Shown here: positions 2,130 to 2,699 of the stretch, one piece after another
Numbering within the stretch: the stretch's first letter is position 1
Layout: each line of letters opens with the position of its first letter
Virus record (IMG/VR): IMGVR_UViG_2877285697_000004
Span: 1-17,853 of that record
DNA: 17,853 bases
Direction: 5' to 3' (one strand)
Source of the DNA: a virus
Lineage: Duplodnaviria; Heunggongvirae; Uroviricota; Caudoviricetes
Notes under the pieces: generated by a model
Told to the model about the DNA's origin: nothing
The model's database searches: none
Seen by the model: the letters and a program-made list of their open reading frames with translations, nothing else
Translations under genes and position numbers: made by a program

Positions 2130-2699
2130 TCATTCCGGATGCTCCTGAGCCACGTTGAAATCGCCATGATCACGACAAGGCATCACAACAAATTCAGGAT
2201 TGCCATACATTGAGTTGATGATGGAATCAAACTGAATTCTGACCGCTTGCCCGTCACCGGAGGGACGTAACTGGACGGGAATAAATTTACGCTCACGACC
2301 AAACATCTTCTCTGGATAACTCAGGTAACCCGACTGGTGCACCGGGTGAGTACAGCGGTCAAACTTTTTCGGAATGATGCGATCCAAATCCGGAAAACAA
2401 CCGTCCACCAGTTTAATGCCGGTAATGGACAGTCGTCGCTGAAACTGGTCGCGATGAACAGCGATCGGCTCTTTACTAAAAATCAGCTCTGTCGTTTCGG
2501 CTTTGGCCGGGACGCCCCCTTCGAACTGGACAATGATGTTTTTCTTCGTCCGGATGCCGTGAGCCATGCGCAGTGCCACGGAACCATTGGTTGCCTCAAT
2601 ATGTTTCGGCGTGATGTGAAGACCGTTCAGGTAATAACGAACGTCGTTTTTAGCAGCGCACACCAGAGCGGCGCGAATAAGTTTTGACTGGATGATCAT
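2130..2699 (-). CDS. DNA polymerase III beta sliding-clamp (DnaN)-like protein, 189 aa; resembles clamp domains II-III only
   Basis: Three colinear motif matches to E. coli DnaN as I recall it: DVRYYLNG(L) followed by ATNGSVALRM (DnaN: DVRYYLNGM...ATDGHRLAV); KLVDGCFPD...R.IPKK (DnaN: KLVDGRFPDYRRVLPKN); and C-terminal FVVMPCRD (DnaN: YVVMPMRL). Start ATG overlaps the stop of the upstream ORF6N gene (ATGA at 2696-2699). Confidence 0.6.
   Translation of the reverse strand: MIIQSKLIRAALVCAAKNDVRYYLNGLHITPKHIEATNGSVALRMAHGIRTKKNIIVQFEGGVPAKAETTELIFSKEPIAVHRDQFQRRLSITGIKLVDGCFPDLDRIIPKKFDRCTHPVHQSGYLSYPEKMFGRERKFIPVQLRPSGDGQAVRIQFDSIINSMYGNPEFVVMPCRDHGDFNVAQEHPE

Follow-up and report, generated by a model that had tools for sequence, protein, structure and literature searches.

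Gene content and homology of the clamp-like protein

The window analysed here, a 17,853-nucleotide stretch of the virus record IMGVR_UViG_2877285697_000004, carries on its minus strand a gene for a 189-amino-acid protein that resembles the beta sliding clamp, DnaN. The gene lies in the leftward operon of a prophage, where it is translationally coupled through an ATGA overlap to an upstream gene for an ORF6N-domain protein and through a second overlap to a short downstream open reading frame (ORF) (Table 1). A preliminary description of this DNA had reported the first of these couplings, which the sequence confirms, and had called the product a DnaN look-alike on the strength of three quoted DnaN motifs, all of which are present in the product and colinear. 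Profile searches and structure prediction now bear out that resemblance, in that the profile-level homology is clear (E ~1e-17, 99% probability) and the predicted fold is that of a beta clamp. The window protein is a true but distant homologue of DnaN.

The homology is revealed most readily at the level of the family. The window protein alone matches the Pfam model DNA_pol3_beta_2 (PF02767) at 17 bits (E = 0.007), below the gathering threshold of 27 bits, and the TIGR00663 equivalog model at 21.2 bits (E = 1.2e-4; amino acids (aa) 6-115 to model positions 136-254), without reaching the curated whole-protein cut-off of 137.65 bits. A phmmer search of the single sequence against PDB chains retrieves E. 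coli beta at E ~2e-3. Among family members, DNA_pol3_beta_2 matches 20 of 32 at E <= 0.01 (best 2.1e-8), and a profile built from 32 family sequences reaches the E. coli beta chains at E-values of 1.3e-17 to 3.7e-17. More specifically, hhalign aligns a family profile of 193 sequences with the DnaN of strain MG1655 at 99% probability (E = 8.8e-18), with aa 6-115 corresponding to DnaN 137-254. Structure searches with the predicted model return only clamps among their matches.

Two simpler accounts of the resemblance were considered and rejected. Chance matches to the motifs are ruled out by the profile and fold statistics. A recent fragment of the host dnaN gene is likewise ruled out, because the window protein is only 28% identical to E. 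coli DnaN over 126 aligned columns.

Retained and missing parts of the clamp

The AlphaFold model of the window protein (predicted local distance difference test (pLDDT) 90.7; predicted template modelling score (pTM) 0.86) contains the clamp domain fold of beta-alpha-beta-beta-beta repeats. Its elements run in the order beta-alpha-beta-beta-beta, beta-loop-beta-beta-beta, connector and alpha-beta-beta-beta, so that the model comprises three half-domain modules, of which one has no helix, and departs from the three tandem domains (~366 aa) of DnaN. In the module that lacks a helix, the loop GGVPAKAE stands where the second helix of DnaN domain II would be, and the proline of this loop is 95% conserved. 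A marine-phage member of the family, 32% identical to the window protein, has an identical secondary-structure layout (pLDDT 88.5, pTM 0.86).

The last module (aa 116-177) is placed by hhalign on DnaN 314-366 with 93% probability (E = 3.3e-7), and DnaN 258-315 receives only 0.2%. In the best HMMER path, alternatively, the helix region continues into DnaN 255-292. Assignment of this module to the C-terminal half of domain III is favoured because of its terminal VVMPxR motif and the IGFNxxY motif found in distant members. The domain III-like part may nevertheless have a hybrid origin, since the halves of clamp domains are internal repeats and the HMMER alignment offers the alternative path.

The alignments account for DnaN 137-254 and 314-366 only; domain I and the opening half of domain III (DnaN 255-313) have no counterpart in the window protein. 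The preliminary description was therefore right that domain I is missing, that the protein is half the length of DnaN with a shortened domain III equivalent, and that a normal three-domain protomer is impossible; besides domain I, the protein has lost the leading half of domain III as well as the second helix of domain II. Of the four helices that line the channel in the equivalent part of DnaN, only two are left, and the loop of DnaN domain III that contacts the delta subunit is absent.

The DnaN ring is held together by I78, F106, K74, R96, R103 and R105, which pair with I272, L273 and E298-E304 (PMC11139829). Every residue listed there for the head-to-tail dimer interface falls within the missing DnaN 1-136 or 255-313, and because both sides of the interface are gone, canonical ring closure is most likely impossible. 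From the published residue lists we infer that the partner-binding pocket is formed jointly by two half-domains that adjoin in space, the N-terminal one of domain II and the C-terminal one of domain III, and that the remaining half of domain III is turned towards the second protomer. To judge from its sequence, the phage protein would represent a minimal, pocket-bearing clamp core from which both ring-closing surfaces have been removed.

It might instead be a true sliding clamp that assembles in a new way, either from four chains that contribute three half-domains each, twelve in all, or from two chains that pair through their domain III halves into a symmetric half-ring. A two-domain internal product of dnaN in E. 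coli, beta*, reportedly forms trimers (the report being that of Skaliter et al. in 1996), which would show that shortened clamps can re-assemble. With the first half of domain III gone, a packing face should be left unsatisfied. Pairing of one C-terminal half with another is geometrically conceivable, given the pseudo-twofold symmetry between the two halves of a clamp domain in the structure of Kong et al. 1992. However, all known ring-interface residues are absent, one of the three half-domains has no channel helix, and the model is a compact and confident monomer (pTM 0.86). A ring would also require a clamp loader, and the domain III loop that contacts delta is missing. We therefore consider a ring of this kind very unlikely.

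Conservation of the partner-binding pocket

Eighteen residues, distributed over subsites I and II, build the pocket that receives clamp-binding motifs in DnaN (PMC11139829). These positions were compared at the sequence level with the 140 other aligned positions, using the family consensus from 193 sequences. All 18 map inside the two retained segments. The consensus is identical to DnaN at 14 of the 18 pocket positions and at 36 of the 140 others (Fisher p = 2.6e-5), and conservation of at least 70% is found at 10 of 18 pocket positions as against 16 of 140 elsewhere (p = 5e-5). The equivalents of R152, L155, T172, G174, P242, M362 and P363 each occur in at least 90% of members. The residues of the hydrophobic cleft are thus the best-conserved part of the family. 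This pattern is consistent with the suggestion, made in the preliminary description, that a truncated clamp homologue could act as a mimic or decoy of the clamp.

Distribution of the family and its annotation

The window protein is a further member of a family that was noticed and annotated before. An exhaustive HMMER scan found 381 clusters (50% identity) at E <= 1e-3; among the best 150 matches the complete-looking proteins have ~160-230 aa, and shorter ones resemble fragments. Members are stand-alone proteins of about 160-215 aa that combine domain II with half of domain III, as the window protein does. Homologues of ~30% identity were located by tblastn in 212 phage records (Salmonella, Escherichia, Klebsiella, Vibrio, Proteus, Burkholderia and other hosts), and BFVD holds many phage models of the same compact fold (query template modelling score (TMq) 0.7-0.8; targets of 163-250 aa). 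The match to PHROG 3007 has an E-value of 1.1e-63 and joins aa 1-179 to positions 3-188 of 190. The subgroup in E. coli prophages is distinguished by 9 extra residues inserted ahead of the last strand and by variation at the position of His175.

Short phage homologues of the polIII beta subunit were noted in a survey by Kazlauskas and Venclovas 2011 (PMC3201878). Phage genome papers published since then do no more than repeat the label. The RefSeq counterpart of the window protein, WP_000586688.1, differs from it by 2 residues and is named 'beta clamp domain-containing protein', a name given in recent RefSeq annotation runs; it comes from near-identical E. coli prophages (99.8% over 2.3 kb). 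Phage records give the homologues one of two labels, 'DNA polymerase III beta subunit' or 'RusA-like Holliday junction resolvase'. Since labels naming the clamp already exist in both RefSeq and phage records, the novelty implied by the preliminary description was overstated.

The second of these labels, which derives from PHROG 3007 and also stands in GenBank phage records, appears to be a propagated misannotation that neither profile nor fold supports. Taken at its word, it would make the protein a RusA-like Holliday junction resolvase, and both the strong match to PHROG 3007, which bears the name, and its repetition in many GenBank phage records speak for that assignment. However, there is no match to Pfam RusA (PF05866) at E <= 1, and the predicted fold is solely that of a beta clamp. 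In the marine phage, moreover, the operon has a separate, real RusA gene (PF05866) that may be the source of the label. With neither a RusA profile nor a RusA fold match, and with clamp matches of both kinds instead, a resolvase is ruled out for all practical purposes.

Genomic setting

The features at and around the clamp-like gene are given in Table 1. The leftward operon of the window, and of related E. coli prophages situated beside yecN/DUF72, has the order SPFH, ORF6N, clamp-like gene, 40-aa ORF, DUF4222, xis and int, and the integrase and excisionase mark the prophage end adjoining the host DUF72/yecN genes. What the preliminary description termed an accessory operon is rather the early-left operon of the pL type, which lies between the repressor region and xis/int. 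The ORF6N protein matches Pfam ORF6N (E = 2.5e-15) and PHROG anti-repressor families and is present as a coding sequence (CDS) in RefSeq. The 40-aa ORF encodes a hydrophobic C-terminal stretch (TLGMVFAVAFVVYSICRWG) and had no match in the family profile searches, which included Pfam and PHROG. None of the defence-system models of PADLOC-DB was matched at E <= 0.1 by the clamp-like protein or its five neighbours, and a known defence system was accordingly ruled out.

Table 1. Features of the early-left operon; positions refer to the window.
Feature	Position	Strand	Remarks
Integrase	1-1314	-	End of leftward operon; RefSeq context
DUF1233 excisionase	1370-1606	-	Pfam DUF1233, E = 9.5e-33
Downstream 40-aa ORF	2011-2133	-	ATG overlaps stop of clamp-like gene as ATGA 2130-2133; CDS in RefSeq
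Short beta-clamp homologue (CDS), 189 aa	2130-2699	-	From ORF list; stop TGA 2130-2132
Alpha-beta-beta-beta module, aa 116-177, end FVVMPCR	2169-2354	-	Equivalent to DnaN 314-366
Domain II-like part and interdomain connector DGCFPDLDRIIPK, aa 1-115	2355-2699	-	Equivalent to DnaN 137-254
ATGA overlap, ORF6N stop and clamp-like start	2696-2699	-	From sequence
ORF6N-domain anti-repressor-like gene, 249 aa from RefSeq start	2696-3445	-	Longest ORF reaches 3520
Shine-Dalgarno sequence GGAGG	2707-2711	-	7 nt before clamp-like ATG; read from sequence

The upstream gene in enterobacterial prophages encodes either an ORF6N or a Bro-N protein, the two having related C-terminal regions. In E. coli G3/10 a Bro-N protein with such a region occupies the position of the ORF6N protein and overlaps the clamp-like gene in the same ATGA fashion. 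The last two-thirds of the ORF6N protein (LTEMEMIAAMAADAVRQQ ... RGTRWYHPKMGLFQVIGWE) are found again after a Bro-N domain in a Limnobaculum prophage (L005 4317-5072) and, more diverged, in G3/10 (L012 2689-3504). This shared C-terminal module (PHROG 6610) is each time found upstream of a clamp-like gene, an arrangement that looks like N-terminal domain swapping on a common C-terminal part.

An obligate partnership between the clamp-like and ORF6N proteins is not general, however, and was rejected, as other genes separate the upstream gene from the clamp-like gene in Providencia and Limnobaculum prophages and the upstream gene is absent from lytic phages. A clamp-binding motif in the coupled ORF6N protein was also considered. 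The protein ends in ...HPKMGLFQVIGWEDKA, in which KMGLF resembles a delta-type motif; other partners have Asn in place of Lys (one E. coli copy), EFGGF (G3/10) or no such site (Providencia), and the conserved W.HP..G.F pattern of the C-terminus looks structural. Because the motif varies among partners and the pattern looks structural, the idea was dropped.

Across phages and prophages the gene usually belongs to the early genes, and in prophages it lies in early operons situated between the repressor and int. Beyond E. coli its setting is varied. In the Providencia and Limnobaculum prophages it belongs to the early-left operon, with other small genes in between, and in the marine phage it is the last gene of a replication/nin operon. 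Dhillonvirus, which encodes a DNA polymerase I (Pol I) of its own, carries it as an isolated gene on the opposite strand, flanked by the capsid and spanin genes. In Escherichia phage TheodorHerzl (NC_073062.1 5007-5525; L003 4971-5489) the homologue is placed in the manner of a moron that is expressed independently, far from the genes for Pol I, helicase and single-stranded-DNA-binding protein. The carriers thus include phages with their own polymerase as well as lambdoid prophages with no polymerase gene annotated in the stretch examined. Presence of the gene with and without a phage polymerase favours a target common to all hosts.

The isoelectric point (pI) of the window protein is 9.2 and the family median is 8.8, compared with 5.2 for DnaN. 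Charge of this kind speaks for an open, non-encircling processivity or DNA-tethering factor, whose basic surface would lie on DNA while it holds a polymerase or recombination protein, with neither a ring nor a clamp loader. Herpesvirus UL42 is a monomeric processivity factor that works in this manner. Such a tether would be compatible with binding of clamp-binding motifs, and would need that binding to hold a polymerase. On the other hand, only two of the four channel-lining helices remain, a tenth of the family is acidic (pI < 5.4), no polymerase gene is annotated in the lambdoid prophage stretch examined, and the Dhillonvirus gene stands apart from the replication genes. We regard the tether as an unlikely alternative.

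State of the window prophage

The prophage in the window shows several signs of decay. An in-frame TAG (3852-3854) interrupts the SPFH-domain lipoprotein gene (3489-4319, minus strand), where a 99.8%-identical RefSeq prophage (L001) has CAG, so that the gene, 831 nt long, is broken up into two ORFs (155 and 118 aa). An IS3-family insertion sequence (IS) element (4733-5996; orfA 5630-5932, orfB 4776-5594) abuts the C-terminal part of a lambda-type tape-measure gene at a junction near ~5971. The immunity, replication, lysis and head genes are missing from the window prophage; the closest RefSeq relative has the same IS 230 bp away and an intact early region. The tail-tip gene J (9200-13983) is also split, its first ORF (9200-11344) combining the GpJ FNIII-A domain with a DDE_Tnp_1 transposase domain before J resumes at 11389. 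This joining of a GpJ domain to a transposase domain points to an IS insertion in J.

Beyond the tail-fibre genes, an ORF with a novel E3 ligase (NEL) domain (E = 2.5e-77; 16729-17853, minus strand) extends past the end of the window. The NEL domain is typical of type III effectors of the IpaH/SspH type. This ORF, taken with the IS load and with the finding that the closest matches are to E. coli strains from human stool, suggests an enteroinvasive E. coli or Shigella-like host.

Such decay raises the question of whether the window copy is a passenger without current function, whatever the family does elsewhere. The loss of immunity, replication, lysis and head genes next to the IS3 element, the nonsense codon in the SPFH gene and the transposase in J all agree with this view. 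Both differences from the nearest copy are non-synonymous, a pocket histidine has become serine here and phenylalanine in another E. coli copy, one copy is frameshifted, and the gene occurs in just 60 of 5426 complete E. coli genomes. However, the gene still has an intact reading frame, start codon and ribosome-binding site as well as both of its translational couplings, and the loss of phage promoters is no proof of a silent gene. The ratio of non-synonymous to synonymous substitution (dN/dS) against other E. coli copies is ~0.3, a weak indication that rests on only 12-17 substitutions. Overall, a functionless passenger seems to us quite improbable.

Proposed role of the short clamp

The reading that we favour, although we put its chances somewhat short of even, is that the protein forms no ring but serves as a soluble docking module to which clamp-binding motifs attach, acting as a decoy or adaptor in early lytic growth. 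The retained pieces are those that in the true clamp form the pocket for polymerases, the clamp-loader subunit delta, Hda, MutS/MutL and other partners, which dock through a QLxLF-type motif. Expression would presumably follow induction of the early-left operon or, in lytic phages, come early in infection. Away from the clamp, the module could then bind the motifs carried by replication and repair proteins of the host and perhaps also of the phage. As a result, partners would be titrated, if it acts as a decoy, or one of them tethered, if it acts as an adaptor; the protein would be expected to do this as a monomer and to affect the host accordingly. Monomeric beta binds delta ~50-fold tighter than the dimer does (PMC11139829), and for this reason a monomeric pocket could compete effectively.

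Several observations weigh against a docking role. Pocket residues are the most conserved of DnaN in general, so that their enrichment could partly reflect constraint on the fold. The window protein is itself identical to DnaN at only 11 of the 18 pocket positions, below the family level, with two further changes being conservative. It has serine (Ser40) in place of the bridging His175, which DnaN and 86% of the family possess, glutamine in place of Asn320, and cysteine in place of arginine in the DGRFPD motif. Other E. coli copies (L009 3832-4401, L010 3832-4402 and L011 4979-5548) likewise vary at positions that are nearly invariant in the family, with serine or phenylalanine at the His175 equivalent and, in one copy, D99G; the copy of DETEC-S792 is frameshifted. 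The G3/10 copy (L012), 76% identical, keeps the canonical His and Arg. The window prophage is decayed and defective, and the mostly basic charge of the family suits direct contact with DNA no less than a purely decoy function. Without the first half of domain III, moreover, a hydrophobic face should be exposed, which may be covered by self-association. Finally, a literature search on the function of the family found annotation-level mentions only and no experimental study.

A broader proposal would extend the docking role to the family as a whole: many phage lineages may carry a monomeric, 'pocket-only' derivative of the clamp that competes for motifs, titrating delta, Hda, MutL/MutS or translesion polymerases, and so rewires replication and repair early in infection. 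We think this possible but doubtful. If true, it would be the first described clamp mimic and a mirror image of the phage proteins that bind the clamp. The clamp pocket is a hub for polymerases, the clamp loader, mismatch repair and initiation control, and is an antibiotic target. Should the pocket of the short clamps bind motifs, it would reveal a new and widespread strategy of host takeover, spread over 381 clusters and present in phages from therapy collections that infect Salmonella, Escherichia, Klebsiella and Vibrio. A natural, small and soluble pocket domain would then also be at hand for inhibitor screening and for probing the clamp interactome, and a misleading 'RusA-like Holliday junction resolvase' label that is spreading in phage annotations would be corrected. 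Should the protein be an open processivity factor instead, it would be a bacterial-virus counterpart of herpesvirus UL42.

Comparison with known systems

The window protein differs in nothing essential from PHROG 3007, from the RefSeq family or, presumably, from the short polIII-beta homologues of the five phages in the 2011 survey. What is added here to this known family is the recognition that only the C-terminal half of domain III is present, that the pocket is the conserved feature and that the ring interface is absent. Compared with DnaN itself (E. coli P0A988; PDB 1MMI/2POL), the phage protein is half as long, 28% identical, phage-borne and basic rather than acidic. It lacks domain I, the N-terminal half of domain III, one helix (the second) of domain II and the residues of the ring interface.

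The closest parallel in truncation is E. coli beta*, which is also said to be without domain I and to begin its fold at nearly the same point. However, beta* reportedly has the host gene's own sequence and a complete domain III, and is said to re-form a ring as a trimer (again following Skaliter et al. in 1996), whereas the phage protein is a separate, diverged gene product with half of domain III missing. The herpesvirus processivity factors UL42, UL44 and BMRF1 are eukaryotic-virus proteins with two full PCNA-type domains and are dedicated partners of a viral polymerase; no sequence relationship with them is detectable.

A further group of proteins shares the theme of mobile elements that interfere with, or borrow, the clamp network, namely Gp168 of phage Twort (PDB 7EVP), gp8 of phage N4, SocB of Caulobacter and MuC of phage Mu (PMC12867686). 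These proteins bind the host clamp or delta and, unlike the short phage clamp, none of them is a clamp homologue. A competitor derived from the clamp itself would represent the mirror-image strategy to that of Gp168, gp8, SocB and MuC.
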